This document shows, in pieces, positions 1,486 to 40,326 of a stretch of DNA of 64,000 nt (positions within the stretch are counted from its first letter, which is position 1; the number at the start of each line of letters is the position of its first letter). The stretch covers positions 18,543 through 82,542 of the forward strand of contig JAGAJN010000038.1 of the NCBI GenBank assembly GCA_017828975.1. The letters are read 5' to 3'. The notes under the pieces are model-generated. The model did no database searches. It worked only from the letters and a program-made list of their open reading frames with translations, and was not told the origin of the DNA. Both the position numbers and the translations under genes were made by a program. Origin of the DNA: Oscillospiraceae bacterium. Its GTDB lineage: Bacteria; Bacillota; Clostridia; Oscillospirales; Ruminococcaceae.

Positions 1486-2765
1486 TCGTCATCACCTGCA
1501 CTTTCATCAAGACCTCTGAGAAGATATTCGGTATCGGGGACAAGGCTTGCAGCAGCTTCCTTCAGCTCGTCCATAGTGACGGCACAGACCTTTGCTGCAA
1601 TTTCCTCGGGATCGTCGGAAATTCCTCTGATACTGTTATTGAAATACCAGCCTGCCAGAGCCTTCGGATAATCGTAATATGCCTTTGCGGAATTGGAGAT
1701 CGCCAGCTTTGCGGCAGACAGCTCGCTTTCGGTGACATTTCCCGCTTTTATCTCCTCAATCTGACGGTTTATCTCGGCTTTCGCAGCTTCTACCTTGTCA
1801 AGGCTTACTCCGCTGTCAACAAAAAGCGTCTTTTTCATCAGATTTACCGAGGACGAACAGTAGTAGCAAAGGCTCAGCTTCTCACGGACATTTGTGAACA
1901 GCTTGGAAACGGGAGTTGCGCCCAGCACCATATTCAGCAGCCTTACAGCGGGTTCATTTTCCGACCTGAACTTATAGGCTAGTATCATCTTGCACTGAAC
2001 AACGTCCAGCTCGTCCTCCGCAGATACAGACTGATGCTTGACGGGAGAGGGGGCTATGATAATATCAGACGGTACCTTTCTGTCGGCGGGCTTGAATGCG
2101 CCGATTATCTTTTCTTCTGCGCCCTCGGGATATTCTCCGCCTGCGAAAATGACCTCTATCTGTGCCTCGGAAATAAGTCTGCGGTACTGTTCGTAAACAG
2201 TCTTGGGAGTGAGTGATTTTGCGGTTTCAAGGGTACCGTTTACGGAATTTGCGGCAGGCTCGCCCTTGTAGACTATCTTTGATGTCTGCATAAAGGCATA
2301 GCTGCGCTTGTCGTTTATCTCGGTAAGTATGTCGTCGATAAGCTCACGGCGTTTCAGCTCAAATTCCTTTTCGGGGAACACGCCGTTTTCCAGAGCGGGT
2401 CTTGTGACACATTCTAAGATGATGTCAATAAGCTGTCCGCAGATATTTTCGCCTTCTAGGGCGTATCTGTCACCGATAGCGGTACCGTTTACCGACAGCG
2501 TCTGATAATCTCCCAGCTTGCCGCAACCGTCATAAACGGTTGAGCCGTAAAGGGCGGTGAGCATACGGTTAAATTCGGTCTGAGATGGGTGGGACTCGCA
2601 GCTTTTTGACAGTATGGACGGTATTATGGAGTTTGCCGAGGCTGTTTCGGGGGAAAGCTTTGTTATCAGCCTGACTGAGAAAAAGTTGGTTTTATATCTT
2701 TTGTCTAATATGACGGAAAAATGTATTCCTCCGCCAAGTTCTTTTCTTTCGTATTGTACGGACAA
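1482..2765 (-). CDS. M16 family peptidase-like protein lacking HxxEH (probable non-catalytic partner)
   Basis: 427-aa ORF with M16-like length and layout, but no HxxEH is visible. It is translationally coupled to the active M16 gene. Confidence 0.7.
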   Translation of the reverse strand: MSVQYERKELGGGIHFSVILDKRYKTNFFSVRLITKLSPETASANSIIPSILSKSCESHPSQTEFNRMLTALYGSTVYDGCGKLGDYQTLSVNGTAIGDRYALEGENICGQLIDIILECVTRPALENGVFPEKEFELKRRELIDDILTEINDKRSYAFMQTSKIVYKGEPAANSVNGTLETAKSLTPKTVYEQYRRLISEAQIEVIFAGGEYPEGAEEKIIGAFKPADRKVPSDIIIAPSPVKHQSVSAEDELDVVQCKMILAYKFRSENEPAVRLLNMVLGATPVSKLFTNVREKLSLCYYCSSSVNLMKKTLFVDSGVSLDKVEAAKAEINRQIEEIKAGNVTESELSAAKLAISNSAKAYYDYPKALAGWYFNNSIRGISDDPEEIAAKVCAVTMDELKEAAASLVPDTEYLLRGLDESAGDDE

Positions 2766-6640: not shown

Positions 6641-8779
6641 ATGGTGCGGAAAATGGCATATATCGGTTTTTCGTTTATTGCCGGTATGTTTTTCGCATCA
6701 TTTTTTTCGTTGTATGTTACTGTCGCGGTTTTTGGCAGCGCTGCAGCAATTTCGGCGGTGTTCTTTGCGGTCAAGCGTAGGAAACGTCCTCACAAGGCTG
6801 ACGGACAGTTAATAATGACGCTGACTGTTTGCATTATATCGGCTTCGGTCGGTGTTCTGCGGTACAGCATCTATAATACGTATGTGTACAATAAAACGGT
6901 CGCATTTGACGGGCAGCAGGTATGCTTTTCGGGGCAGATAACCGAATGTAAGCTGCTTTCTTCAGGAACTGCCATATATACTGCTAAGGGGAAGATCAAC
7001 GGAGAAGTCGGAGCGACAGTCAGCTTCTTTTCCGGTAATTCTACCTATGAGATTTCCGATCATGCCGATGTTACAGGGACTTGCCGCAGACTGGAGGACA
7101 GCTGGAAATTTCCCGAAAAAAGCTACTATAAGCCCAAAGGAATATATGTAAAGCTTACGGACATTACAGCCGAAAGCTTCACTTCCAACAATAAATTTTC
7201 CCTGAAAAAGACACTTTGCGGCTATCGGGATAAGATTTGCGGGAAAATCAAAAGCGCCCTTGCCGAACGTGAAGCAGCAGTTGTTCTTGCAATGGTTTTC
7301 GGCGAAAAATCCGGGCTGGACAGCTTTGACAAGCTTTGCTTTTACCGTTCGGGAATCGGTCATATAATGGCAGTTTCGGGTACTCATATGGTGCTGATTG
7401 CGGGATTTGCTATTGCCGTTCTGGGCTTTTTGCCGCTGGGACCCGCGGAACGGTTTGTTTTGCTTTTTTTCGTTATAACGCCCTTTGCTATCATGTCGGG
7501 ACTTACGCCGTCTGTTATACGCTCGGCGGTGATGATCTTCATCGTTTACAGCGGAACGGCGTTGGGACGGCAGAGTGACACTTTGAATTCACTTGGAATT
7601 GCGGCGTTAATTCTGGCGGGAATAAATCCTTTTTGTATTCGTGATCCGTCATTCCTGATGTCTTTTGCCGGGGTTATCGGGATTTCCGTGATCGCTCCCG
7701 CTATTTCAAAGGCGGTCGATGAATGCTTTAAGACGGAGAAAACGCTTGATTTTCTTATAGTCCCGCTTGGTGCGGCTATCGCTGTATATCCCGTGTCGGT
7801 TTTCTTTTTTGATGAACTTTCGGTCGTTTCGCCCATCGTTCAGATACTGCTGATGCCCATATGCACTCTGATACTGTTCTGCGGCTTTGCCTTTATGGTG
7901 ACGGGCGGGACGATAGGCGTTTTGCTGCTGCCTGCGGGCTCGGCGGCGCATATTGTTCTGAATGTCTGCCGATTTTTCGGAACAAAGCAGTGGTCGTATC
8001 TTCCGCTTCAGGGCGAACTTCCGAAGGTTATGGCAGCAGCTGTCATTATTGCGGCGGTTGCTGTGGGATTTATGAAGGGGAGATCTGCTGCGGCGTGGGC
8101 TTCGGCGGCAATGTTTGCTGTGATGATAACAACATTGTCTGTTGACCGAATGAATATAGGCGGCAGGGTTACGGCTGCCGTTATCGGTGATACGAAATCG
8201 TCGGTATGTATTGTTCATGACGGATATAAGGCGATAGTTATTGACCTGAATTACGGTGAGAAATGTGCTTCTGCAGCGGCGGATTATCTTTATGGTTACG
8301 GAATCAATACTGTTGATATGCTTGTTCTGCCGAGAGGTGCATATCCCCAAGACAAAGCATTTACCGAAAGCTTTGAGCATTTTGATCTGGGAATGGTTGC
8401 TGTACCGAAAGGACGGCTTGCAGATGAGGATACATTTAAAATTGTTCAGTCTGAGTTTTCTTATGGCAGTGCCGAGATCGACAATGATTTTGCGGCTGTT
8501 TTGCCTGTTTCAAAGACTGATATTGCTGTAAAGCTTAACGGCATTACATTACTTTTGACGGAAGATCCGCAGATTGCAGACAGATTTATGGCATATCCGG
8601 ATATATTGGTATGCTATGGCAAAAGTGACGCTGATTTGGGAAATGAACGGACAGTATATTCCGAAAACAGATTGTTTCTTTCAGATGAAAATACCTTGTA
8701 TGGTGTAAATGCAGAATACTTTACATATCCCGATGGAAGAATAAAAACGGAGGTGATAAGCTTTGGCGGCAGTTACTGA
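6641..8779 (+). CDS. comEC: ComEC/Rec2 family membrane protein with degenerate C-terminal metallo-beta-lactamase region
   Basis: 712 aa with a polytopic competence domain (GIGHIMAVSGTHM...). It sits in the conserved position just upstream of holA. The C-terminal region lacks HxHxDH. Confidence 0.8.
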   Translation: MVRKMAYIGFSFIAGMFFASFFSLYVTVAVFGSAAAISAVFFAVKRRKRPHKADGQLIMTLTVCIISASVGVLRYSIYNTYVYNKTVAFDGQQVCFSGQITECKLLSSGTAIYTAKGKINGEVGATVSFFSGNSTYEISDHADVTGTCRRLEDSWKFPEKSYYKPKGIYVKLTDITAESFTSNNKFSLKKTLCGYRDKICGKIKSALAEREAAVVLAMVFGEKSGLDSFDKLCFYRSGIGHIMAVSGTHMVLIAGFAIAVLGFLPLGPAERFVLLFFVITPFAIMSGLTPSVIRSAVMIFIVYSGTALGRQSDTLNSLGIAALILAGINPFCIRDPSFLMSFAGVIGISVIAPAISKAVDECFKTEKTLDFLIVPLGAAIAVYPVSVFFFDELSVVSPIVQILLMPICTLILFCGFAFMVTGGTIGVLLLPAGSAAHIVLNVCRFFGTKQWSYLPLQGELPKVMAAAVIIAAVAVGFMKGRSAAAWASAAMFAVMITTLSVDRMNIGGRVTAAVIGDTKSSVCIVHDGYKAIVIDLNYGEKCASAAADYLYGYGINTVDMLVLPRGAYPQDKAFTESFEHFDLGMVAVPKGRLADEDTFKIVQSEFSYGSAEIDNDFAAVLPVSKTDIAVKLNGITLLLTEDPQIADRFMAYPDILVCYGKSDADLGNERTVYSENRLFLSDENTLYGVNAEYFTYPDGRIKTEVISFGGSY

Positions 8780-9815
8780 CAAGGAACTGTTCTCTGCACT
8801 CAGAAGCGGAGATTATTCAAATGTTTATTGGTTTTACGGGCACGATTTTGATTCGGTGGAGAAATGCGCAAAGCAGCTTATGAAAAAAATCGTGGGCAAG
8901 GACGGCGAAGCTTATAATCTCCACAGCTTTCAGGGAGATGATCTTGATGTAGGCGAGCTTTTGGATTCCTGCGAAATGCTGCCGTTTTTTGCCGAACGAC
9001 AGTGTTGCACCGTCTGCGATATAAATGCGGAGCAGCTTCCTGCCGAGGACAATAAGGCGCTTCTCTCGTTGGTTGCCGACCTTCCGAAAGAAACTGTGCT
9101 TATTTTCTATAACACCTCTGTGGATATTTGCGGCGGAAAAAAAGTGCCGACGGCAAAGAACAAAAAGCTGCTTGACGCCGTTGCAAAATACGGAACTACA
9201 TGCTGTTTTGAGCTGAAAACGCCTGCGGAGCTTTCGAAAACTATCTGTTCCCGTGCCGCTAAGCTTGGCTGCAGCATATCGCCGCAGGATGCTGCATATC
9301 TGGCGGAGCTTTACAATTCAAATATGGTCATGCTTTCAAATGAGCTGGAAAAGCTGGCTTCTTATGCAAATGGCGGTGAGATAACACGGGAGATCATTGA
9401 TATGCTGTCGGCAGATCAGCTTTCGTCAACGATTTTTGACCTGTCCAAGGCAATTGCACTTTTTGACACCAAAAAGGCACTCAGACTGATGGACGAGCTG
9501 TTTTTGCAAAAGACCGAACCTATATCCCTGCTTTATGCGGTAACATCGTCGCTGCTGGATATGTATCGGGCAAGGGCTGCGCTTAATGCGGGAAAGTATA
9601 TCGATGATATTGTAAGGGATTTTGGATATCCGAAAAACAGGGAATTCCTTGTAAAAAATGCTGTACGTGATGTTCGCAGCATTCCTGCGGGACGGCTGAG
9701 AAGGTGCGTGATGATAGCTGCGGAAACCGACCGTATCATGAAATCTTCATCGGGAGATCAGCAGGTCATTTTACAGGAGGCTGTTGTGAAAATGTCAGCT
9801 GCCCCAAGAAATTAA
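8763..9815 (+). CDS. holA: DNA polymerase III delta subunit
   Basis: 350 aa with a TTG start overlapping the comEC end by 17 nt. Conserved comEC-holA synteny and a delta-like N-terminal region. Confidence 0.7.
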   Translation: MAAVTDKELFSALRSGDYSNVYWFYGHDFDSVEKCAKQLMKKIVGKDGEAYNLHSFQGDDLDVGELLDSCEMLPFFAERQCCTVCDINAEQLPAEDNKALLSLVADLPKETVLIFYNTSVDICGGKKVPTAKNKKLLDAVAKYGTTCCFELKTPAELSKTICSRAAKLGCSISPQDAAYLAELYNSNMVMLSNELEKLASYANGGEITREIIDMLSADQLSSTIFDLSKAIALFDTKKALRLMDELFLQKTEPISLLYAVTSSLLDMYRARAALNAGKYIDDIVRDFGYPKNREFLVKNAVRDVRSIPAGRLRRCVMIAAETDRIMKSSSGDQQVILQEAVVKMSAAPRN

Positions 9816-9829
9816 CGGGAGGAGATCTT

Positions 9830-10426
9830 GTGCTTCATACGAATATGGCAGTGATCGTCGAGGGAAAATATGATAAGATCAAGCTTTCCTCGGTAATTGA
9901 TGCTGTAATTATCCCCACAAATGGGTTTCGAGTTTTCAAGGACAAAGAAAAAATGGAACTCATACGATATTACGCTTCGGGAGCGGGCATAATAATTCTT
10001 ACCGACTCAGATTCGGCGGGATTCAAAATACGAAATTACATTAAAGGCTCTGTGGGAAATGCACGTATATTCAACGTTTATATTCCCGATATTTACGGAA
10101 AGGAACGGCGCAAGACCGAATATTCCAAGGAGGGCAAGCTGGGGGTCGAGGGTATGGACGAGGACGTTCTTATCGAAGCCTTCAAGAGATCGGGGATAGA
10201 TTTTTCCGATGAACCCCGCCGCCGCAGAGATATTACAAAGATGGACCTTTTCGAGGACGGACTTTCGGGCGGCGCAAACAGCTCGGAAAAACGGGCGGAG
10301 CTTCTGAAGCTCCTCGGTCTGCCCGAACTGCTCACCGCAAACGCTATGCTGGAGGTCCTGAACGCTATGCTCACAAGAGAGCAGTATAAGCAGGCTGTCA
10401 GCCAATTAGGGAAAACTGATGAATAA
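9830..10426 (+). CDS. Toprim domain protein (RNase M5-like / DUF4093-like)
   Basis: AVIVEGKYDKIKL ... IIILTDSDSAGFKIR are Toprim E and DxD motifs. Start set to the GTG at 9830, 6 nt after GGGAGGAG. The ORF-track extension from 9704 overlaps holA. Confidence 0.6.
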   Translation: MLHTNMAVIVEGKYDKIKLSSVIDAVIIPTNGFRVFKDKEKMELIRYYASGAGIIILTDSDSAGFKIRNYIKGSVGNARIFNVYIPDIYGKERRKTEYSKEGKLGVEGMDEDVLIEAFKRSGIDFSDEPRRRRDITKMDLFEDGLSGGANSSEKRAELLKLLGLPELLTANAMLEVLNAMLTREQYKQAVSQLGKTDE

Positions 10427-10435
10427 GGAGAAGCT

Positions 10436-11839
10436 ATGGTTTTTTCAAGTTTAGTCTTTCTGTTTTACTTTCTTCCCGTTGTAATGATACTGTATTTTTT
10501 CTCGCCGACTAAGGTGAGAAATGTTATTATTCTGATTTCGGGAATAATCTTTTACGCCTGGGGAGAGCCGTTCTATATTCTGATAATGCTGCTGTCTACC
10601 GCTATTGACTATACGGCAGGACGTATGCTCGACAAATTCGATGGCAATGAAAAGCTTCGCAGGCTGTTTCTGATAATCTCCGTATGTATGAACGTGGGAC
10701 TTCTCAGTGTTTTCAAATACGGCAGCTTTATTATCACCAATATCAACGGGCTGCTGGGAACGAATATTTTTGACCCGAAGCTGCCTTTGCCCATCGGAAT
10801 TTCCTTTTACACCTTCCAGTCAATGTCCTACACCATTGACCTGTATTTGCGGAATATAAAGGTACAGAAGAATTTTTTCAGCTTTGCGGCGTATGTTACG
10901 CTGTTCCCGCAGATAGTTGCAGGTCCTATTGTCCGTTATGAGGACGTTGCCAAGGAGATAGACGACCGCACGGTGAATATCGGCAAAGTCAGTCAGGGCA
11001 TAGGCACATTCCTGAAAGGTCTCGGAAAAAAGGTCATTCTTGCAAACAATATCGGACTTGTATGGTCTGAGGTCAAAGCTATGGATTATTCGCAGCTGCC
11101 TGTGCTTACTGCATGGATAGGAATTCTTGCATTTGCATTTCAGATATATTTCGATTTTTCGGGATATTCCGATATGGCTGTGGGTCTGGGAAAGATGCTT
11201 GGCTTCAATTTTCCGAAGAACTTCGATCACCCGTACATTTCCAAAAGCGTTTCGGAATTCTGGAGAAGGTGGCACATCACTCTCGGTTCATGGTTCCGTT
11301 CATATGTGTATATCCCCCTTGGCGGAAATCGCTGCGGAACGTTGAAAACTCTGCGAAATCTGCTGATAACGTGGGCGCTGACGGGCTTATGGCACGGTGC
11401 TGACTGGAACTTTATCATCTGGGGACTGTATTTCGGAATTCTGATAATAATCGAGCGTATCGGGTTCGGAAAGGTGCTGGAGAAGCTGCCATCGCCCATT
11501 AGTATGCTGTACACCTTTTTGATAGTTGTGATAGGCTGGGTTTTCTTTGATATTGAGGGATTTATGCCTGCTGTACGCTATCTGGGGGCAATGTTCGGCG
11601 CAAGCGGTATTGGCTTTGACAGTCATTCGCTTTATCTGCTCATTTCCAATGCGGCGATATTTGCCATATGTATTTTCGGTTCAACGGATCTGTTCGATTT
11701 TTACAGGGACAAGCTCAGGACGAAAAAGCCCGAAGCTGCGAAGGCTGTCACACCTGTTCTGCAGTTGGCAGTCCTTGTGCTTTGCACGGCGTATCTTACC
11801 GATGCAAGCTACAATCCGTTTCTTTACTTTAAATTCTAG
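10436..11839 (+). CDS. MBOAT family O-acyltransferase (AlgI/DltB-like)
   Basis: 467-aa polytopic protein with the RRWHITLGSWFRSYVYIPLGG motif carrying the conserved MBOAT His. Confidence 0.9.
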   Translation: MVFSSLVFLFYFLPVVMILYFFSPTKVRNVIILISGIIFYAWGEPFYILIMLLSTAIDYTAGRMLDKFDGNEKLRRLFLIISVCMNVGLLSVFKYGSFIITNINGLLGTNIFDPKLPLPIGISFYTFQSMSYTIDLYLRNIKVQKNFFSFAAYVTLFPQIVAGPIVRYEDVAKEIDDRTVNIGKVSQGIGTFLKGLGKKVILANNIGLVWSEVKAMDYSQLPVLTAWIGILAFAFQIYFDFSGYSDMAVGLGKMLGFNFPKNFDHPYISKSVSEFWRRWHITLGSWFRSYVYIPLGGNRCGTLKTLRNLLITWALTGLWHGADWNFIIWGLYFGILIIIERIGFGKVLEKLPSPISMLYTFLIVVIGWVFFDIEGFMPAVRYLGAMFGASGIGFDSHSLYLLISNAAIFAICIFGSTDLFDFYRDKLRTKKPEAAKAVTPVLQLAVLVLCTAYLTDASYNPFLYFKF

Positions 11840-11849
11840 GAGGTAGCGT

Positions 11850-13007
11850 ATGAAAGATAATAAAAAGAAACGTCCCCTTGACGTATATTCCATAGTTACC
11901 TCTGTACTGTTTTTCGGATTTATCGTTGTTTTTGCGCTGCTGACGATTTTCCTTCCCAAAGAGAAAAAATCTGAGCTGGAAAACAGAAATCTTGCATCAT
12001 TTCCCAAGGCAAATATTGATGACATCAAGAGTACGGAGTTTATGACAGACATTGAAACCTATATCTCCGACCATTTTGCCGCAAGAGTGCCGTTTCTGAA
12101 GCTTAAAGGCTTTTCCGAAAGACTTCTGGGAAGAAGCGAGCGCAACGATGTTTTCATCACCGAGAATATGCTTATGGAAAAGGTACCCGAGCCCGATTAT
12201 ACGTCAATTGACAAGTCTGTTGCTGCAATAAATAAGTTTGACGAGGGGATAGATGCGCAGGTATTTATGATGCTTGTTCCCACAGCGGCGGCGATATATC
12301 CCGACAAGCTGCCGAGCTATGCACCCTCTGCGGACCAGAAGCAGCTTATTGACTATGTTTACGGAAATCTCAGCAGCAGTATTATTCCCATAGATGCGTA
12401 TTCCGCTATGCAGAACAGTTCGTCGGAATATATCTATTATCGTACAGACCACCACTGGACAAGCCTTGGCGCATACTGTGCATATAATGCGGCGGGCAAA
12501 AAAATGGGCTATTCTCCGCTTCCGAGGGACAGCTTCGACATTCAGCACGCAAGCAGCGATTTCCTGGGAACGCTTTACTCAAAGACCTTGTACGACGGCT
12601 GCGAACCTGATGTTATCGACTACTGGTTCGGCGAAAACGGCGAAAATATCCTCTCTATGGAGGTCAACACGGGTATGGAGGTCAACACCTACAACAGCCT
12701 TTATATGCGTGAGTTTCTGTCTGTCAAGGACAAATATGCTTCATTTACGGGAACAAATCAGCCGCTTATCAAGATAAAGACAGGCTGCACAGACGGTCCT
12801 CGGCTGCTGGTCATCAAGGACTCCTATGCGCACTCCTTTGTGCCGTTTCTTGCAAACAATTACTCGGAGATAACGATGATAGATATGAGGTACATTCAGA
12901 CTTCCTATAAAAGCATTGTGAACCCCGAGGATTTTGACCAGGTGCTTATTCTTTACAATGTTTCCGGATTTATTACCGATGCGAATATTCCTAAGCTGAA
13001 ATATTAA
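11850..13007 (+). CDS. DHHW family protein (AlgJ/AlgX-like extracytoplasmic O-acyl transfer partner)
   Basis: N-terminal TM anchor and the literal DHHW motif (YYRTDHHWTSLGAY). It starts 10 nt after the MBOAT gene. Confidence 0.85.
   Translation: MKDNKKKRPLDVYSIVTSVLFFGFIVVFALLTIFLPKEKKSELENRNLASFPKANIDDIKSTEFMTDIETYISDHFAARVPFLKLKGFSERLLGRSERNDVFITENMLMEKVPEPDYTSIDKSVAAINKFDEGIDAQVFMMLVPTAAAIYPDKLPSYAPSADQKQLIDYVYGNLSSSIIPIDAYSAMQNSSSEYIYYRTDHHWTSLGAYCAYNAAGKKMGYSPLPRDSFDIQHASSDFLGTLYSKTLYDGCEPDVIDYWFGENGENILSMEVNTGMEVNTYNSLYMREFLSVKDKYASFTGTNQPLIKIKTGCTDGPRLLVIKDSYAHSFVPFLANNYSEITMIDMRYIQTSYKSIVNPEDFDQVLILYNVSGFITDANIPKLKY
12657..12692 (+). repeat. in-frame 18-bp tandem duplication inside the DHHW gene
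   Basis: ATGGAGGTCAACAC occurs at 12657-12670 and again at 12675-12688 (period 18 bp). It encodes MEVNTG-MEVNTY. Confidence 0.9.
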
Positions 13008-13020
13008 TTTGAAATTAAAC

Positions 13021-13075
13021 CCGCTCCGATTTACTTTGGAATATTGTTTCCAATGAAAAATCGGGGCGGTTTTGC
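13021..13075 (+). terminator. rho-independent terminator after the MBOAT-DHHW pair
   Basis: CCCGCTCCGATTT at 13021-13033 pairs with AAATCGGGGCGG at 13059-13070. There is an inner TTGGAA/TTCCAA stem, and TTTT follows. Confidence 0.6.
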
Positions 13076-13343
13076 GTTTCAATGAATTTATGTCGGAAAA
13101 TGTCGCTGTGTCGCAGCTTTGAGAAGCGGCATAAAATGTATTGTGCGGACGGCGGTGACGGGGATAATACCAAACATCCATTAATCACGGGAATCTCTCG
13201 GCGCCAAAAACCATATACGCAAGTTTTTTACGCCGATTTCTTCTCAGTGATTTAAATGGTGTTTATTATACGCGGAAAGTGGTTAATCAATACCCTCAGA
13301 ATAGCTTCTGCGGCGTTTTCGCTGTCCGATTTTTATAGATACT

Positions 13344-25586: not shown

Positions 25587-27422
25587 TTATTCGAGAATAA
25601 GGTCGTTCTCGTCAAATGTGGGATATTCTCCGTTTTCAGAAAATTCAGAGGTCGTAATACCGTTAATATCGGTTATTTCAATTGTCATTGGTGCTGAATT
25701 CATAAACAAAGTATTGACATCATTGCCGCATACGCCGCCTGAATATTGAATTGTCCCGCAATATGCCGAAATATTGTATTTTCCTGCAATAGGGCAATGC
25801 CATACAGCTTCTCCGTTTTTGTCCGTTGCACCGATAACATAGCCGCCCCAAGCACCGGAATATCTTTCGGCAAGATTGCTGCCGTCAAAGCCCTCAGGAC
25901 GGAGTATCACCCAATATCCGAACAGGGGACTGCCGTTTTCGTCCAGCAGACGGATAACGGTTTTTGACCTATCGACGGCGTTCAGCTCGTCGGGAGTAGG
26001 GAGGTCCCACGGCAGATCAAAGCTTATATTCCGAGGGGCGTCTGCATTTATCTCTATGGTAAACTGAATTTCGTTTCGTTTGCTTTCAACGCCGTCTGAA
26101 TTTACCATCATATCCGAGGCGGTCACAAGATATGCTCCCTCGGTAAGGGTGCGGACTGTTGGCTTATCGCCGCAGGTAAGGGCAGCACCGTCCATATATC
26201 CTCCGCGGTCGTTGTCAAAGTCATATCCGAGAACGCCGTTTGCATACTTGATCGCTTTGCAGGTCACACGCAGTCCGTTTACGGGGTCGCCGTTTTTATC
26301 GGAGAATATGAACGAGGCTTGGTATTGACGAGGTTCTTCAGCAGGCTGAGAATTTGGGTCGTATGCAGGAGAGGTGAACTCGCTGTCCTTTGCATCGGCG
26401 GTGTTTTGCAAATTTTCGTACTTCTCGGCATAATAACGTTCATCCTGTGCAACATTGTCCCTATACCGTGTTCCGAGAAATGTGTCGATAAAATCCTCGC
26501 TCATTTCATAATTCCGACAAAATGCCGAAATAACATTGCTTTCGGGAGATATTGGGAACGCCATGACCTCGCCGCCTGCATATTTTGCCACAAGATAATA
26601 GCGCTGCGGCTCTGCTATATGGACGGAAAGATCATCAACCGTGTAATCACGTCCGTACTCGAATTTACCGCCTTCGGAAAGCCCGCCGATAATATCTGTC
26701 AATTCGGTGTCAAGAAGATTTGTATTTTCCTCGACAGCTACGGTACAGTAAGACATACTTTCCCAGTCATCTTCATAGGCGCAGTTGAAGTTCATTACAT
26801 CAAAAGAATAAAGCATATCTCCCGAAGTTCTGAGCATTTCTTCCAGCATATTGCCTTCGCTTTTGACGGGGGAATGGTAGCGGTAGAAATGTATTTCGCC
26901 GTCAGACTCCAGCCCTAGAAGATTGGGATTTTTACTATCCGCAAAATAATGCAGCCCGCTTCCGCCCGGAACTTCATTTCCGAGAATGGGTTTGTCGGAA
27001 TAGCCCGAATAACCGTTGAAAAGTATGGTAAGCAGCTCCTCATCATTGTCGGCTCGCATATATATTTTTTCTCCGACAATTATTTTGAGGGGCACATCAG
27101 TCGCTTCTTCAACTGCCGTTTCGGGTATTGGGATTTCCGCCGAAGCGGTTTCTGCGGAAGAAGTTTCGGTATATACAGCAGCATTTGTCCCTGTTTCGGG
27201 TACGGATTCAATATCCCTGTCGCTGCCGTAACGTACGGAAGTTACCGCTATTACTGCTGTCAGAACGCAAAGGGACACAGCCGCAGCCGCTTGCAATATG
27301 GGACTTCTTCTTTTCGGAGCATCGACGGAAACGGGATTTTCCGCATTTGCAGCAATTCTCCGCTTCATATCCGAATTTGCATTAATGGAGCTGTAAATGC
27401 GGTCCAGATCGTTCTTATTCAT
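25587..27422 (-). CDS. single-pass membrane protein, probable anti-sigma factor with a large extracytoplasmic region
   Basis: Its start overlaps the stop of the ECF sigma gene by 8 nt. It has a short cytoplasmic N-terminus, one TM segment (ILQAAAAVSLCVLTAVIAVTSV) and an about 540-aa external part. Confidence 0.55.
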   Translation of the reverse strand: MNKNDLDRIYSSINANSDMKRRIAANAENPVSVDAPKRRSPILQAAAAVSLCVLTAVIAVTSVRYGSDRDIESVPETGTNAAVYTETSSAETASAEIPIPETAVEEATDVPLKIIVGEKIYMRADNDEELLTILFNGYSGYSDKPILGNEVPGGSGLHYFADSKNPNLLGLESDGEIHFYRYHSPVKSEGNMLEEMLRTSGDMLYSFDVMNFNCAYEDDWESMSYCTVAVEENTNLLDTELTDIIGGLSEGGKFEYGRDYTVDDLSVHIAEPQRYYLVAKYAGGEVMAFPISPESNVISAFCRNYEMSEDFIDTFLGTRYRDNVAQDERYYAEKYENLQNTADAKDSEFTSPAYDPNSQPAEEPRQYQASFIFSDKNGDPVNGLRVTCKAIKYANGVLGYDFDNDRGGYMDGAALTCGDKPTVRTLTEGAYLVTASDMMVNSDGVESKRNEIQFTIEINADAPRNISFDLPWDLPTPDELNAVDRSKTVIRLLDENGSPLFGYWVILRPEGFDGSNLAERYSGAWGGYVIGATDKNGEAVWHCPIAGKYNISAYCGTIQYSGGVCGNDVNTLFMNSAPMTIEITDINGITTSEFSENGEYPTFDENDLILE

Positions 27423-27909
27423 TTTTCAGCCCTCCTTCATTCAGTTCAAGACGCAGCTTTTTTCTTGCACGGTAAATATCGGAGCCTACCGTTTTTGCAT
27501 TTCTGCCCGTAATTTCGGATATTTCCTCCAAAGAATATCCTTCAAAGCAAAATAGATACAAGGCATTTCTCTGATGCTCGGGCAGGCTTCGGATAAGCTC
27601 GGCATATTCAATGCTTTCGAAATCATCGGCAAAGGATATGCAGCCGTAATCAGCAAGCGGCTGGTTTTTGCGGAACCATGCGGAACGTGCCCTGTCATGA
27701 CATAGATTGATAGCAACACGGATAAGCCACGCCTTTTTATGTTCGCAGCTGTCAAAACCCGACGTATTTTTCATCAGCCTTATAAATGTTTCCTGCACAA
27801 TATCCTCAGCATCGTGGCAATTTTTCGTATTCTGAACAGCAATTCGCAGAATGGTATCGGCGTAAGCTTCGACATCGGCTTCAAAGATCGTCTTTTCATC
27901 TGCGGTCAT
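27415..27909 (-). CDS. ECF-type sigma-70 family RNA polymerase sigma factor
   Basis: Region 2 (DAEDIVQETFIRL ... WLIRVAINLCHD) and region 4 (LYLFCFEGYSLEEISEITGRNAKTVGSDIYRARKKL). Start at MTADEK after GGGGTGG. Confidence 0.85.
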   Translation of the reverse strand: MTADEKTIFEADVEAYADTILRIAVQNTKNCHDAEDIVQETFIRLMKNTSGFDSCEHKKAWLIRVAINLCHDRARSAWFRKNQPLADYGCISFADDFESIEYAELIRSLPEHQRNALYLFCFEGYSLEEISEITGRNAKTVGSDIYRARKKLRLELNEGGLKNE

Positions 27910-27995
27910 CTGCACCACCCCTTTTATGTTTCTGTATATAATACGGTTCTCGAATGCTGTTTTTTGCAGCATATAAAAATTTCCCCGACAAAATA

Positions 27996-34266: not shown

Positions 34267-34647
34267 ATGGCGAATATTTCAAAGCGGCTCACAGCAGGTT
34301 TTGCCGTTTCCGCAGCAATTGCAGGACTGGCGGCGTATCTTATTGTTCCGAAGAATGAATTCAGCATCATGGACGGCTGCGGCAGCGGCGAGGATATAAA
34401 CTATTCCATCATCAACAGTGATGTTATTTCCGAGGAAATGCCGATCGAATATTCGCTTGCGGGACAGAAGTGGAAGGGCTGGAAGTTCAGGACATCCGGT
34501 GAGGGAAGTGCGGACATCGTAGTCTGCCGTTACAGCGGCGATGGGATAAAAAGCACGGAAATATACACAGTCAAGGTGGACAAGTCGCTGCATATCTGCG
34601 ATTACAGAATAAAGTCTGCCGATGGTTTGGACGATATGATACCATAA
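34267..34647 (+). CDS. hypothetical small secreted or anchored protein
   Basis: 126 aa with an N-terminal hydrophobic segment. It starts 24 nt after the TM2 gene and is followed by a strong terminator. Confidence 0.5.
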   Translation: MANISKRLTAGFAVSAAIAGLAAYLIVPKNEFSIMDGCGSGEDINYSIINSDVISEEMPIEYSLAGQKWKGWKFRTSGEGSADIVVCRYSGDGIKSTEIYTVKVDKSLHICDYRIKSADGLDDMIP

Positions 34648-34651
34648 TAAA

Positions 34652-34690
34652 ACCGTCACATCGTTTTGTGCGATGTGACGGTCATTTTTT
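34652..34690. terminator. bidirectional rho-independent terminator
   Basis: 12-bp perfect stem ACCGTCACATCG / CGATGTGACGGT, flanked by an A-run upstream and TTTTTT downstream. Confidence 0.8.
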
Positions 34691-34697
34691 AGGGTTA

Positions 34698-35582
34698 TCA
34701 AACTCCCGCAATAATAACATTCACAGTTCCGAAGGGGAATGCCAGAGGGATACGGAATGCTTCGGCAAGATCATTCAGCTCGGCACCGACGGAGTTTTCC
34801 TGAGGTTCAAGCTGCAGCTCCATACCGGAATCATTGGATATGTTTACGGTAAACAGACCGTTCTGGAGGTTTAAAAACTCGCCGACAGAAGCATTTGTCA
34901 TTTCGTCAATGCAGTTGAGAGGTTCACCTGCATATCTGGCAGCAAAATCTATGTAAGCATTATCGTCAGCTTCAATTGCTGTAACAAACGAGATAGGACC
35001 GTTTATCTTCTGAACGGCAGCGTTCATACAGGAATAGGAAGTGATCTGCTCGGGGTCAAGGGGAGTGAAATCATCACCGATGAAGCGTATGATATTTTTA
35101 AAGAAAAGGGAGATGTAATCGGTGTAGGTCTTGGAATTTCTCAGAGCGTCAAGACCGTAGAATTTTCTGATTGCAGCGCATGCTTTATCGTTCTGAACAT
35201 CTGTGAAATCTGCATCGGTAATGCTGTTTTCGGCCTTGTAGCTGCGCATTGCCTGTTCAAACTGAGCGGTGGTCATATAGCCTCTGTCAACGAGGGCCTG
35301 TCCCATAAGAAGGTGACCGCTTTTCTGAGATGAAAGCAGTTCTTCGACCTGATCTTTTGTCAGGAAGCCCATTTCAACGGCAATATCGCCGATACGCTTG
35401 TCCATTCTCTGCTGAGCATTATGGACCTCTTCGACCTGCTCTGCGGTCATATATCCTGCATTTATCGCCAGAACGCCTAGCTTTAATCTGGTGGTTTTCT
35501 GCAGCTCCAATGCCTCGGTCAGCTGTTCGGGAGAAACAAGACGCTGATTGAGCAGATAATTTCCAAAAAATTGTGTAAACAT
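34698..35582 (-). CDS. protein with four MshEN-type (T2SSE_N-like) repeats and a C-terminal CheX/CheC-like phosphatase motif
   Basis: Residues 5-115 form four 24-aa motifs with 5-aa spacers fitting xLGxxhhxxGhhxxxxLxxxLxxQ. The C-terminal SVGEFLNLQNG...LEP resembles the CheC/CheX ExxN...P consensus. Confidence 0.55.
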   Translation of the reverse strand: MFTQFFGNYLLNQRLVSPEQLTEALELQKTTRLKLGVLAINAGYMTAEQVEEVHNAQQRMDKRIGDIAVEMGFLTKDQVEELLSSQKSGHLLMGQALVDRGYMTTAQFEQAMRSYKAENSITDADFTDVQNDKACAAIRKFYGLDALRNSKTYTDYISLFFKNIIRFIGDDFTPLDPEQITSYSCMNAAVQKINGPISFVTAIEADDNAYIDFAARYAGEPLNCIDEMTNASVGEFLNLQNGLFTVNISNDSGMELQLEPQENSVGAELNDLAEAFRIPLAFPFGTVNVIIAGV

Positions 35583-35637
35583 GATAAATAATCCTCCGAA
35601 AAAGTTTATATATTACTGTGTCAATGACGTGAATTTA

Positions 35638-36003
35638 TCATATCCTGTTCAGGATCTTTTCTACATCGCTGTCGGAAATAGGCTTCTGGAGAAAATCGTA
35701 TGCTCCTGCTTCGATAGCTTCCTTAAGATTTCCCTGAGTACCCACAGATGAAGCAACAACGACCTTTGCCTTGGGATTTACGGCAAGAATTTCTTTAAGT
35801 GCTTCAACGCCTGTCTTTTTGGGCATTACAATGTCCATAAAGGTAATGTCTGGAAGATTTGTCTTATACTGCTCAACCGCATTTTCACCGTCTGTTGCGG
35901 TATAGATCTCCTTGCAGCCGAGCTTAGTCATAAGGTCGGTCATTTTTTTGCGTACAAGGATAGAATCATCACATATCAATACTCTGATCTCAGAAAGAAT
36001 CAT
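35638..36003 (-). CDS. single-domain response regulator receiver (CheY-like)
   Basis: VLICDDS, FMDIVMP (phospho-Asp), VVVASS and LQKP conserved receiver residues. No output domain. Confidence 0.85.
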   Translation of the reverse strand: MILSEIRVLICDDSILVRKKMTDLMTKLGCKEIYTATDGENAVEQYKTNLPDITFMDIVMPKKTGVEALKEILAVNPKAKVVVASSVGTQGNLKEAIEAGAYDFLQKPISDSDVEKILNRI

Positions 36004-36173
36004 TTTAAAAACTCCAATCATATCCATTTAGTAAAAACTTTGACCGCGAATCACCGCGATAACTCTATACACTTAATATTATACTCCTATTTACAGGTAA
36101 TTTCAATATACTTTTTATGAATTAAGTGAAAAACGGTAGAAAAGAGGGTAACGCTTTTGTTAATATTGCACAA

Positions 36174-36855: not shown

Positions 36856-38220
36856 TCAGATTTTTTCGGAAAGTCTGTCGATAAGCTTTCCCAATGATGT
36901 AAAATCGGGGTTTTCGGAACTTTCGCCGTATCTTATGATGTCGTAGGCATCGGCTGTGGGGGAATACTCGGAAAAGTCGTTTTTTACCTGCTCCAGCTGA
37001 CCAATTTCGCCTGTGGTTCGGACGGGGGATATTTCTGTTCCCGTCAGCCTGAAACCGTCAAGCGCTGCTTTGAAGCCTTTTCGGTATTTTTCGGGAGATT
37101 CGGGCATTTTTTTGTAATCCTTCACAAGCCGTTTCCATTCGGAGATCTGTTTTCTTCTCGGCAGCTGCCTGAACGTTTCCGCTTCGTCTTCGGAGAGGAA
37201 TTCCTCGCTGTCGGTAAATCCACATTCCTCGTCGTTATCTTTTTTGGCAAATTTTAAGGAAACATCGGACAGAAGCTTCAGCAGCTTTCGGAAAGCGTTT
37301 TTCATGACCTTGACGGCACTTCCGAAGAATTTTATTATCAGCACTGCAATTATAATGAAGCCGACGATATAAAACAGCGCATTCCAGACTGGGTGGGGAG
37401 TTACCTCGGGGACATCTTCGAGGGGAACGTACTCAGGCAGTTTTGGAAGCTCTTCGAGAGGTTCGGCATCTCCTCCGGTGGTTTTGCTGAGCTGTCTTGC
37501 CAGCTCCATAGAAGCGGCTCCGACAATTTTTATAAGCTTGAACAGGGAGAGAAATATTGCTGAAATGCCGTCCTTGAACAGGAAAAGCAGGGCGGTAATG
37601 CTGGCAATTATCACGATAAGCCTGATGGTATAGGCACGCACCTTCGGCGGGAGATTTTGCTCGCTGTGCCGTCTGCGCTGCATCAGATAGTCAATATTTC
37701 CCTGACTTTTCCCGATAGCAAATATCAGAATTATGATGAAGTAGAAGAAAATCATCAGTTCGGGGCTGTATGGGTGCTCGGTAAGGAACAATATAAGTAT
37801 CACCAGGAGATTTCCAACTGCGGAAAATATTATGCCAAAGCCCTTCAGTATCATGGTATAATGGAAAAAATAGTATCGGCAGCCGAAAACGAACAGCATC
37901 AGACAAAGCGCCGTAAGCAGGACGACCGAGACGATACCTCTTTGCTGATTTGACGAGAAAACAAAGAACGCTCCCACCGCCGAAGCAATTGCAAACAATA
38001 CAAGCAGCAGCCGTCCCACAACGGGCTTTCTGTCCTCTAACAGACTGAATGTCATTCGGATAATATAGCCGAAAAATCCAAATCCTGCGGCAATTCCCAT
38101 ATCGGTCAGCCAGATGAACCCGCCGAGATCGTCAAAGCCGTCTATGAGCATTATCAGCGGAAAAAACAGCAAAAATGACGCCAGACAGGCAAGCAGCTTT
38201 ATGGCATCAAGAAGCTTCAT
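36856..38220 (-). CDS. polytopic membrane protein with a DUF4129-like cytoplasmic tail
   Basis: 454 aa with many TM segments. Its C-terminal part resembles tails found after MoxR-DUF58 pairs. It overlaps the DUF58 gene by 14 nt. Confidence 0.45.
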
Positions 38221-39361
38221 GGTGTTCCGCCTCCTTTTCGGGGATATTCAAGCCGAAGAAATTCCGTCCGACGGAAATTGCGTTGATGTGCGAGGGAATA
38301 TACTCGGGAATTTCGCCTGTGGTCAGGATAGTGACACCCTTTTGGGATTCCGCAAAGCTTACGGTATGTTCGTCTATGTAAGGCGTGATGACGTATATTT
38401 CCGTTCCGGGGGCAGCTTTGCAGGTGCCGTTCAGAAACGCTCCGAAGCTTTCGGCGGCGTCAAATTTGAGTTCCGCAAGAAGTCTTAGGCAGGAGAGAAG
38501 CTGTTCGCCGCCTGTGGCAGTTTCGGAGATGATATTTCCCGAATTTTCCGCGATCTGTCCGTTGGAAAGAAGCGTCATAGGCACTCCGCTTTCAGAACAG
38601 GATCTCAGCAGAGAGGCGGCAACCTTTATACATATTTCAAGAGCCATAACGTCCAGAGGGTCGCCGAAATCTATTTCCGAGGACTGACAATTTAAGATGA
38701 CGGCACAGCTTTTGTTCAGCGTGTAGTCGTTATTGTATATCATCAGTTCATCGGCAGCGGCGGTAGCCTTCCAGCATATTCTTCGGAGATTGTCGCCGTC
38801 AATATACTCGTGGATACCATTATAAAAGAACGGGTCTGAAATTATCTGACGCTTGGTAAAAACATTTCCGCAGATGTAGCTGACGCTGTCCCGTGAAATG
38901 CTGTCGGCAGGCAAGGGGGCGGGCAGGACACGCACTCTTGCATTCAGCTCCACGGGCATAGATGTGTTCATCGTACCGAAAAGGTCGCTGGAAACAAGAA
39001 TGGACTTTTCAATGGTATAAACGCCCCTTTTCAGGCACTTGACCTTCCAGCTTCGGCGTATTTTGTGATAGCTTTTGAGCATAAAGATGCTGGAGATAAA
39101 CCTCGTTTCTCCCGTGACTACCGATTCAAGCTCGCCCGCTTCAAGCCATTTTGACGTGGCAAGCTCGGATTTCAGCCAGCTTACGGGCAGCAGCTTTGCA
39201 TTGCTGATCTCCTCGATAAGTTCTATTTCGTCACCCTCAAAGGCTTCATCAACGCTGAAACAGCATTTATATTCAAGGTTTGAAAAAATTTTTCTGCAGT
39301 AAACAAGGTGCTCAACAGCAAGTACGAGCACAATGATAGCAAGTATTGCAAGAAAATCCAT
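38207..39361 (-). CDS. DUF58 domain protein
   Basis: N-terminal TM segment, the RRICWKATAAADELMIYN motif (DUF58 signature RRIxWKxSAR-like), and a position directly after MoxR. Confidence 0.75.
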   Translation of the reverse strand: MDFLAILAIIVLVLAVEHLVYCRKIFSNLEYKCCFSVDEAFEGDEIELIEEISNAKLLPVSWLKSELATSKWLEAGELESVVTGETRFISSIFMLKSYHKIRRSWKVKCLKRGVYTIEKSILVSSDLFGTMNTSMPVELNARVRVLPAPLPADSISRDSVSYICGNVFTKRQIISDPFFYNGIHEYIDGDNLRRICWKATAAADELMIYNNDYTLNKSCAVILNCQSSEIDFGDPLDVMALEICIKVAASLLRSCSESGVPMTLLSNGQIAENSGNIISETATGGEQLLSCLRLLAELKFDAAESFGAFLNGTCKAAPGTEIYVITPYIDEHTVSFAESQKGVTILTTGEIPEYIPSHINAISVGRNFFGLNIPEKEAEHHEAS

Positions 39362-39381
39362 AGCTTTACCGTCTTCCTGAG

Positions 39382-40326
39382 TTATTCGATAGGTACACGA
39401 ACGCTTTCTGTTGCCTTAACTGCCAATTCCCTCTGAGCTGCAGCTGCGCCCTCTCGGAGAACTGCGGAGGTTTTCGGGATAATTCGGTGAGCGATAACGT
39501 CGGGGGCTATCCGCTTTACGTCGTCGGGTGTCACGAAATCTCTGCCGCTGACAGCAGCCTGCGCCTTTGATGCTTTGAGCAGGGCAAGCGTTCCTCTTGG
39601 GCTTACTCCCAAACGAATGGACTGATCGTTCCTTGTTTCGGTGCAGATGTCGAGTATGTATTCCTTGACGGCTTCGGAAACTCTTATTGTTCCGATATAC
39701 TTTTGAGCTTCCACAAGCTCCTCGGCAGATGCTACCGCTTCAAGGCTGTCAATGGGCGATTTTGATGCGTGCTCGTCCATAACCGAAAGCTCGTTTTCAC
39801 GGCTGGGATAGCCCATTGAAAGGCGCATTAAAAATCTGTCCAGCTGTGCTTCGGGCAGGGGGAATGTGCCTTGCGTTTCAATGGGATTTTGAGTTGCAAT
39901 TACCATAAAGGGGGCTTTCAGGGGATATATCTTTCCGTCAATGGTCGCCTGACGCTCCTCCATACATTCCAGCAGACCGGACTGTGTACGGGGAGTTGCT
40001 CTGTTTATTTCGTCCGCAAGCAGTATATTTGTAAACACTGCGCCGGGACGGAATCTGAACTCATTTTCTCTGCGGTCGTAGATATTCAGTCCCGTAACAT
40101 CGGAGGGGAGCAGGTCGGGGGTGAACTGCACACGCTTGAAATCGCAGCTTACCGACTTTGCCAGTGCCTTTGCTGCGGTGGTCTTGCCCGTTCCCGGAAT
40201 ATCCTCCAGCAGGACGTGTCCCGAACAGAGTGCGGCGATTATGATCTTTTCTATAACATCGTCCTTGCCTATAATGACCTTTCCGATGTTTGCTTTCAGC
40301 TTGTCCGACAATGATTTTATATCCAT
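39382..40326 (-). CDS. MoxR family AAA+ ATPase
   Basis: Walker A GTGKTT and Walker B / sensor LLADEINRATPRTQSGLLECMEE. 314 aa. Confidence 0.92.
   Translation of the reverse strand: MDIKSLSDKLKANIGKVIIGKDDVIEKIIIAALCSGHVLLEDIPGTGKTTAAKALAKSVSCDFKRVQFTPDLLPSDVTGLNIYDRRENEFRFRPGAVFTNILLADEINRATPRTQSGLLECMEERQATIDGKIYPLKAPFMVIATQNPIETQGTFPLPEAQLDRFLMRLSMGYPSRENELSVMDEHASKSPIDSLEAVASAEELVEAQKYIGTIRVSEAVKEYILDICTETRNDQSIRLGVSPRGTLALLKASKAQAAVSGRDFVTPDDVKRIAPDVIAHRIIPKTSAVLREGAAAAQRELAVKATESVRVPIE

Follow-up and report, generated by a model that had tools for sequence, protein, structure and literature searches.

What does a stand-alone CheY-like receiver do beside a protein in which predicted cyclic di-GMP (c-di-GMP) receptor motifs are fused to a CheX-like domain? 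This gene pair occurs in a 64,000-nucleotide stretch of DNA from an Oscillospiraceae bacterium (GCA_017828975.1, contig JAGAJN010000038.1, positions 18,543 to 82,542 of the forward strand), to which we refer as the window. A first-pass annotation had suggested that the fusion protein may be a phosphatase for phosphorylated CheY, or a partner module, gated by c-di-GMP. Our analysis leads us to regard it as fairly probable that the locus is a two-gene operon encoding a CheY-family receiver and a dedicated CheX-type aspartyl-phosphate phosphatase with a four-motif c-di-GMP sensor. The domain assignments of the earlier proposal and its link to the receiver stood; we infer ligand binding and phosphatase activity as the best explanation. 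The two genes are:

34698..35582, minus strand: (MshEN_N)2-CheX fusion protein, 294 amino acids (aa), with a GGAGG ribosome-binding site at 35593-35597
35638..36003, minus strand: stand-alone CheY-like receiver, 121 aa, with ATG at 36003 and GGAG at 36012-36015

The CheX-type C-terminal domain

By structure prediction and alignment, the C-terminal half of the fusion protein has the CheX fold and retains the Glu and Asn that are catalytic in that family:

34701..35141, minus strand: CheX-fold domain, about residues 148-294 (AlphaFold2, Foldseek and profile matches)
34827..34904, minus strand: long predicted catalytic helix, residues 227-252, with Glu235 at 34878-34880 and Asn238 at 34869-34871

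An AlphaFold2 model built from 27 homologues reached a mean predicted local distance difference test (pLDDT) score of 88.7 and a predicted template modelling (pTM) score of 0.79, residues 140-294 lying at 85-96. When this model was compared with the PDB by Foldseek, the top 13 matches were all CheX or CheC-like proteins, including 3HM4, 3IIC, 1SQU, 6VPW, 3H4Y, 3H2D, 1XKO and 3HZH. They were obtained with E values of 5.5e-10 to 4e-7, target-normalised template modelling (TM) scores of 0.70-0.83 and root-mean-square deviations (rmsd) of 2.4-4.0 Å over 146-158 columns. CheC, FliY and FliM matched much more weakly than CheX, with a TM score of about 0.5 for FliM as compared to about 0.8. Structure prediction, one of the checks proposed in the first-pass annotation, thus returned a CheX fold.

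A profile made from 44 diverse C-terminal domains of the family matched the CheX proteins of T. maritima (1SQU and 1XKO, E 0.003) and B. burgdorferi (3HZH, E 0.015). In these alignments, Glu235 and Asn238 fell on 'GELGN' of T. maritima CheX and on 'TEVGN' (E96/N99) of B. burgdorferi CheX, Pro260 aligned with the proline of the CheX 'ITPP' motif, and Gly285, the family consensus in 108 of 117 cluster representatives, aligned with the Gly of the Borrelia CheX 'DGK' sequence that precedes the last strands. The earlier assignment of a CheX-type domain therefore holds for the fold as well as for the catalytic Glu and Asn, which are in register with those of solved structures. Of the 117 representatives, 87 have Glu and 28 have Asp at position 235, and 114 have Asn at position 238.

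The active-site consensus of CheX is D/S-x3-E-x2-N-x21-P (PMC12887009). The fusion protein reads A231-x3-E235-x2-N238-x21-P260, so that the spacing of E, N and P is exact. The stretch 'SVGEFLNLQNG...LEP', previously likened to the CheC/CheX/FliY consensus, is indeed present with its Glu, Asn and Pro; Ser232, however, stands three residues before Glu235 and not four. A search with PF04509 (CheC), likewise proposed earlier, gave no match to the fusion protein.

The N-terminal motif array

The N-terminal part consists of four regularly spaced motifs:

35238..35570, minus strand: array of four 24-residue MshEN_N-type motifs, residues 5-115, eight helices predicted
35499-35570, minus strand: motif 1, residues 5-28
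35412-35483, minus strand: motif 2, residues 34-57
35325-35396, minus strand: motif 3, residues 63-86
35238-35309, minus strand: motif 4, residues 92-115

In the translation of 34698-35582 the motifs follow each other with a period of 29 and are separated by the 5-residue spacers KTTRL, QRMDK and KSGHL, exactly as described in the first-pass annotation. Such regularity is far beyond chance. The NCBIfam model NF053729 ('c-di-GMP_motif, MshE-related') matched the protein in two stretches with 90.6 bits (E 3.8e-26), against a curated cutoff of 38 bits. This cutoff was passed by 8 of 9 relatives tested, some of which gave three stretches. The assignment to MshEN-type c-di-GMP-receptor motifs is thereby upheld. 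V. cholerae MshE (5HTL) was matched at E 3e-6 by a profile of 27 homologues, and T. thermophilus PilF at E 1e-11. When the protein was compared without gaps to residues 9-58 of MshE, the BLOSUM62 scores were 64, 91 and 81 at offsets 5, 34 and 63 and at most -8 at all remaining offsets; all three adjacent motif pairs hence score far above background. At the 11 key positions of the published relaxed MshEN pattern, motif 3 agreed in 11, motifs 2 and 4 in 10 and motif 1 in 9, motif 3 being the only exact match. The AlphaFold2 model of the array (pLDDT 77-89) showed eight helices in a helical-hairpin fold superposable on MshE, with a Foldseek match to 5htl_B at an rmsd of 0.8 Å over 53 columns and 34% identity.

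PF05157 (T2SSE_N), also among the searches proposed earlier, found no match in the fusion protein at E up to 1. This result is in keeping with the class that Wang et al. call 'MshEN_N only', which has no T2SSE_N1 subdomain (PMC5013675). Two other families gave sub-threshold scores over residues 25-86, FumaraseC_C with 30.2 bits (threshold 32.5) and DUF4388 with 23.8 bits (threshold 25). We consider both to be helical-hairpin look-alikes, the region being explained by NF053729 and the MshE and PilF structures.

Are these motifs likely to bind c-di-GMP? The Gly at the third position is kept in all four of them and the terminal Gln in motifs 1-3 (Gln28, Gln57 and Gln86). In MshEN motifs, the backbone amide of this third-position Gly reads the guanine. 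Across the family, motif positions 3, 10 (the turn Gly) and 24, together with hydrophobic positions, are the best-conserved columns of the N-terminal part, and the deviations seen in the outer motifs, namely Phe or Tyr at position 5, Leu92 and Tyr115, are family traits as well. The first-pass annotation had cautioned that the motif-initial Arg is often missing. The residues are indeed Phe5, Lys34 and Leu92 in motifs 1, 2 and 4, but the weight of this caveat is largely removed by PilF's GSPII-B domain, whose motifs start with Lys and Leu and which binds c-di-GMP at 6 nM without an Arg contact (PMC11731258).

Since every spacer is five residues long, three overlapping 53-residue MshEN_N registers are possible. 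The central pair of motifs 2 and 3 is the most MshE-like (91 compared with 64 and 81) and the best conserved in the family. Judged from the motif spacing, the putative ligand stoichiometry could be one, two or three, and occupation of overlapping registers by more than one c-di-GMP might give a graded or switch-like response. On the strength of these motif features the array would be a c-di-GMP sensor.

Pairing with the receiver and distribution

The protein database contained 1210 homologues of the fusion protein at E up to 1e-3, the best 120 of which were all full-length at 289-301 aa. Several of them, from Oscillospiraceae, Huintestinicola, Cellulosilyticaceae and Clostridia, carry the NCBI/JGI name 'chemotaxis protein CheX'. 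When one genome per species was scanned, 344 loci encoding such a protein were obtained, of which that of an Oscillospiraceae metagenome-assembled genome (MAG) was the closest, at 97% identity. Carriers include Bovifimicola ammoniilytica (L072) and Huintestinicola MAGs (L011, L025, L049, L054) and, among the distant members, Heliomicrobium modesticaldum and an Ignavibacteriales MAG. With the C-terminal domain alone as query, 302 clusters made at 50% identity were recovered up to E 1e-3. Among the top 150 of these, lengths of 280-320 aa and alignments from about residue 118 prevailed, and the shorter entries were apparently fragments. Hence this CheX subfamily hardly occurs outside the architecture of about 295 aa.

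We examined the neighbourhoods of distant members and those of 80 close loci, 79 of which include upstream sequence. All 79 of the latter loci had a receiver orthologue (50-97% identity) that precedes the fusion gene on the same strand at a distance of 16-150 bp, and the pairing was also seen in distant members. The other neighbours from the window (UDG, MoxR, DUF58, TM2, L31) were common only to the three or four closest relatives. With the neighbours varying and the receiver constant, the conserved unit is the gene pair and not the wider neighbourhood, and a functional link between the fusion protein and the receiver is strongly supported by this strict pairing.

The receiver matched PF00072 with 87.7 bits. 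Its residues D12, D13, D57, S85, F104 and K107 are invariant in 69 orthologues. An upstream receiver on the same strand with a complete phospho-acceptor set (D12, D13, D57, S85 and K107) had thus been correctly described, as had the 55-bp gap to the fusion gene, which contains the GGAGG ribosome-binding site. The name 'CheY' is only partly appropriate: the protein is CheY-like, and in distant relatives its gene accompanies that of a CheA-type kinase, but we saw no connection to a flagellar motor, and the best NCBIfam CheY model scored 87 bits against a cutoff of 200.

Operon layout

Three further elements frame the two genes:

36078..36106, minus strand: promoter-like site TTGAAA-17-TATAAT upstream of the receiver, 11/12 consensus matches, by consensus match only
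36043..36060, minus strand: 7-bp 5'-leader hairpin followed by the T-run CAAAGTTTTT, between the promoter-like site and the receiver ribosome-binding site
34651..34683, unstranded: hairpin with a 13-bp stem and T-runs on both strands, directly after the fusion gene stop

From this arrangement, receiver and fusion gene appear to form a two-gene operon bracketed by a promoter-like site and a terminator-like hairpin. The most likely start of the receiver is 36003, with GGAG 8 nt upstream; the listed open reading frame (ORF) start at 36027 is less likely. Both promoter hexamers are also kept in the three most closely related loci. The hairpin in the leader, which is roughly 60 nt long, may be an attenuator or a stability element. 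In locus L002, two of its stem pairs are changed on both sides (C-G to T-A and G-C to A-T) with pairing kept, and in L003 the hairpin is missing.

The hairpin at 34651-34683 looks like a bidirectional terminator common to the fusion gene and a convergent 126-aa ORF. This ORF (34267-34647, plus strand) has a hydrophobic N-terminus; Pfam gave no match to it, and only the four closest relatives share it (47-97% identity).

Genomic context in relatives

Distant members of the family (27-33% identity) showed a second operon order, in which the fusion gene is followed by a 120-aa receiver and a 650-670-aa kinase. The kinase consists of an N-terminal CBS part, a 'HTxKGD' Hpt motif and a C-terminal domain that matched CheA P4 at E 3e-37; neither a HisKA nor a CheW-like domain was found in it. 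This order occurred at L087 (10001-13291), L088 (7075-11516) and L093 (10001-14611; Heliomicrobium modesticaldum CP000930, HM1_2628), with receivers 30-39% identical to that of the window. L093 was the only locus with an MCPsignal gene (419 aa), located directly after the kinase. No CheW, CheR or CheB was present near these operons, and we found no description of such an operon in the literature searched. When the window and the 80 close loci were searched for this CheA-type kinase, three loci gave weak HATPase_c matches and nothing else was obtained.

The commonest extra neighbour among the 80 loci was a 125-aa Hpt protein (PF01627; for example 1265-1642, minus strand, in L086). All-against-all blastp found it in 13 loci, immediately upstream of the receiver in 10, and tblastn in 14 loci; in L086 the gene is divergently oriented. 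A FapA-family gene lay nearby upstream in three loci, directly so in L085 (8014-9399). Directly beside the module we observed a GGDEF-EAL gene in L087 (8231-9817, minus strand), an EAL gene in L091 (4616-6481, minus strand) and a REC-HD_5/HD gene of HD-GYP-like type in L092 (8201-9241, minus strand). Further c-di-GMP turnover genes lay within 1.5-4.5 kb in L015 (about 6800-8100), L022 (about 6950-7680) and L073 (about 10400-11100). The recurrence of such genes by the module in six unrelated neighbourhoods supports, by association, a connection to c-di-GMP.

Tandem paralogues of the fusion gene occurred in L088 (7075-9105) and L091 (7018-9074). In the latter pair, the tested copy had no NF053729 match and the array of the other copy is visibly degenerate, with the CheX 'EDFINLHNG' helix kept in both. 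From their sequences, these paralogues look like natural sensor-dead variants.

A separate observation concerns locus L086, an Oscillospiraceae MAG, where a type IV pilus cluster (8284-13237) lies 5-10 kb downstream of the module. Its genes encode three pilins of the N_methyl type, an ATPase resembling PilT and a PilB that bears MshEN. On the basis of this single case, pili might be considered as a different output.

Proposed mechanism and its alternatives

In the mechanism that we favor, the receiver would obtain its phosphoryl group from a kinase or Hpt donor whose gene lies elsewhere; in relatives, this role would fall to the CBS-Hpt-CheA-type kinase or to the small Hpt protein of the neighbouring gene. 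The CheX domain would insert Glu235 and Asn238 into the receiver active site and hydrolyze the acyl phosphate, comparable to the Borrelia CheX-CheY3 pair. Binding of c-di-GMP to the helical array would alter this phosphatase activity, and the cellular level of c-di-GMP would in this way be read out as the lifetime of the phosphorylated receiver.

Several observations weigh against this mechanism. The D/S position of the CheX consensus is occupied by Ala231, leaving the strict [DS]x3ExxN pattern unmatched; among the 117 cluster representatives, 63 have Ala at this position, 40 have Asp and 6 have Ser. PF13690, the other CheX-type model proposed in the first-pass annotation, scored 18.7 bits with the full protein and 20.5 bits with the domain alone. 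Both values lie below the gathering score of 27 bits, though relatives scored better (of the 44 diverse ones, 35 matched with E values no higher than 0.01 and as low as 2.6e-12). In the array, motifs 1 and 4 are off consensus (Phe5, Arg14, Leu92 and Tyr115) and motif 2 has His54 at a hydrophobic position that contacts the ligand. In the distant member L090, a receiver is missing beside the fusion gene. The window itself contains no kinase, Hpt, che, flagellar or c-di-GMP-turnover gene, and neither input nor output is visible there.

Part of these observations would fit an array that is a degenerate MshEN_N scaffold, unable to bind c-di-GMP or recognizing another ligand or a protein, with a CheX domain that is constitutive or otherwise regulated. 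The first-position Arg/Lys is missing in motifs 1 and 4, motif 2 has His54, Tyr115 replaces a Gln, and the motif is lost altogether in the L091 paralogue pair. The literature also advises caution: Wang et al. warn that some of their listed proteins lack a recognizable binding motif, and XpsE lost binding through few substitutions (PMC5013675), while GSPII-A of PilF does not bind despite one good motif (PMC11731258). However, first positions other than Arg are proven to be compatible with nanomolar binding (PMC11731258). All four third-position Gly as well as Gln28, Gln57 and Gln86 are kept, the NF053729 score exceeds its curated cutoff more than twofold, no N-terminal columns of the family are better conserved than the motif positions, and c-di-GMP turnover genes recur beside the module. 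We therefore judge a non-sensing array improbable, if worth keeping in mind. The Ala at the D/S position could rather be taken as a sign that the CheX-like domain serves docking or output, so that the fusion protein would be a target of the phosphorylated receiver, integrate c-di-GMP and act on a third component. The middle domain of FliM is such a non-catalytic relative of CheX. The fold does match FliM, FliY and CheC, if more weakly, and the receiver has no output domain of its own and no visible downstream target. This reading seems very unlikely to us: the best structural matches are CheX and not FliM, nearly every member keeps the catalytic Glu/Asp and the Asn aligned with CheX E96/N99, and the consensus Pro is kept, as is the Gly aligned with the 'DGK' turn of Borrelia CheX.

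A c-di-GMP-gated phosphatase acting on its receiver leaves two views of what the pair controls. It may be an auxiliary CheY/CheX set of a flagellar chemotaxis system encoded elsewhere, through which c-di-GMP tunes motor switching. In favor of this sub-case, the module of Heliomicrobium modesticaldum is followed by the CheA-type kinase and the MCPsignal gene, FapA-family genes lie upstream in three loci (directly in L085), and c-di-GMP effectors of Vibrio affect swimming via CheX (PMC12799141, PMC12887009). It is nevertheless doubtful, since che, fla and mcp genes are absent from the window and from most of the roughly 90 related neighbourhoods, and the associated kinase has CBS input and no CheW-like domain. 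A weaker point is that the protologues of Bovifimicola ammoniilytica and Huintestinicola butyrica mention no flagellar genes, which weakly suggests that the output need not be the flagellar motor. Tentatively, we can also picture an autonomous, flagellum-independent circuit built around the receiver-fusion pair in gut and sediment Clostridia, in which a CBS-CheA-type kinase or Hpt donor, the CheY-like receiver and the c-di-GMP-gated CheX would drive a non-motility output. Its input would be the c-di-GMP level and possibly, through CBS, the energy status, translated into the phosphorylation state of the receiver, with pili, exopolysaccharide or development as examples of possible outputs.

Relation to known systems

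The first-pass annotation knew of no characterized MshEN-CheX fusion, and the novelty this implied was overstated. The architecture '(MshEN_N)2-CheX' was catalogued in 2016, though without a defined function, by Wang et al. (Nat Commun, Supplementary Table 4 and Fig. 3c; PMC5013675) for Geobacter lovleyi Glov_2742 and for Deltaproteobacteria and Firmicutes. Glov_2742 has the same domain order and size as the protein of the window and a clearly homologous N-terminus ('MAVKFFGQFLVEQ...KLGEMAVAMGF...' as compared to 'MFTQFFGNYLLNQ...KLGVLAINAGY...'). Its entry is a catalogue line and gives no reference, binding data or partner receiver (PMC5013675). Experimental characterization of any MshEN-CheX protein was not found in the literature searched, which covered few subscription-journal papers. 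What is new here is the near-obligatory receiver, the operon with the CBS-CheA-type kinase and, once, an MCPsignal gene, the association with Hpt and c-di-GMP turnover genes, the retention of the catalytic residues and the ambiguity of the motif register.

Canonical CheX proteins, such as those of T. maritima (1XKO/1SQU), B. burgdorferi (3HZH, with CheY3) and V. vulnificus (6VPW), share the predicted fold with the fusion protein (target-normalised TM 0.70-0.83), as well as E-x2-N-x21-P on a long helix, and likewise the Gly that precedes the final strands. They differ in being about 150 aa long and without a sensor domain, whereas the fusion domain is only 12-17% identical to them and has Ala at the D/S position. 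The CheX domains of the fusion proteins form a separate clade from canonical CheX, found almost only fused to the MshEN_N array.

With MshE (5HTL) and PilF's domains GSPII-B and GSPII-C, the array has in common the 24-residue motifs, the 5-residue spacers and the helical hairpins. The 6-nM binder GSPII-B likewise has Lys and Leu at first positions (PMC11731258), and GSPII-C likewise more than two consecutive motifs. Unlike the MshE and PilF proteins, the fusion protein carries neither the T2SSE_N1 subdomain nor an ATPase.

The nearest functional analogy comes from two Vibrio papers of 2026, in which PilZ proteins act via CheX in trans, PlzC in V. cholerae (PMC12799141) and PlzD, through its suppressors, in V. 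vulnificus (PMC12887009). There, too, a receptor protein for c-di-GMP and a CheX phosphatase are coupled in function. That receptor, however, is a separate PilZ protein and the effect of PlzC on CheX is reported to be c-di-GMP-independent (PMC12799141), whereas in the fusion protein the predicted receptor belongs to another family and is present in cis. As regards CheA-CheY-CheX cores, distant relatives of the module likewise co-encode a CheA-type kinase (Hpt and P4) and, once, an MCPsignal protein. Unlike these cores, the kinase has an N-terminal CBS part and no CheW-like domain, and the window has no kinase.

The surrounding window

The 64 kb surrounding the gene pair is an ordinary chromosomal region of a spore-forming member of the Clostridia, with alaS, comEC, holA, rnf, a PBP gene, rpoD, dnaG, spoIIGA-sigE-sigG, priA, fmt and rsmB. 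A domain scan of roughly 50 gene-like ORFs of at least 150 aa in the window detected no Che, MCP, flagellar, GGDEF, EAL, PilZ or T2SSE domain, in agreement with the first-pass annotation, which had seen no other che, mcp or flagellar genes. A six-frame motif scan of the window revealed neither GGDEF nor HD-GYP motifs. No pilus ATPase or c-di-GMP-turnover gene is present in the window, nor were the Hpt and FapA proteins that neighbor the module elsewhere found in it. Scanning the whole window at Rfam gathering thresholds gave no match, c-di-GMP riboswitches included.

Two other gene groups attracted our attention. At 25587-27972 (minus strand), the gene for an ECF-type (extracytoplasmic function) sigma factor (27415-27972) overlaps the start of a 611-aa ORF without a Pfam match, whose product could belong to an undescribed type of anti-sigma factor. 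At 36856-40326 (minus strand), a MoxR-type AAA_3 ATPase gene (39382-40326) is followed by 384-aa and 454-aa ORFs. Neither had a Pfam match at E up to 1e-5, and the 454-aa product looks like a multi-pass membrane protein by eye. This trio is conserved together with the receiver-fusion pair only in the closest relatives.

Significance

Signaling by c-di-GMP and chemotaxis-type phosphorelays are the two main systems by which bacteria decide to move or to settle, and direct molecular links between them are few. In the module described here, a predicted c-di-GMP receptor is fused in cis to CheX, and the substrate receiver is almost always encoded next to it. The fusion protein and its receiver would thus offer a very simple setting in vitro in which to find out if the half-life of a phosphorylated receiver can be set by a second messenger. 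At least 344 species-level genomes contain the module, many of them from uncultured gut Oscillospiraceae. Establishing its function would fill in a common but mislabelled gene pair, which is annotated as 'chemotaxis protein CheX' in genomes that may be without chemotaxis.

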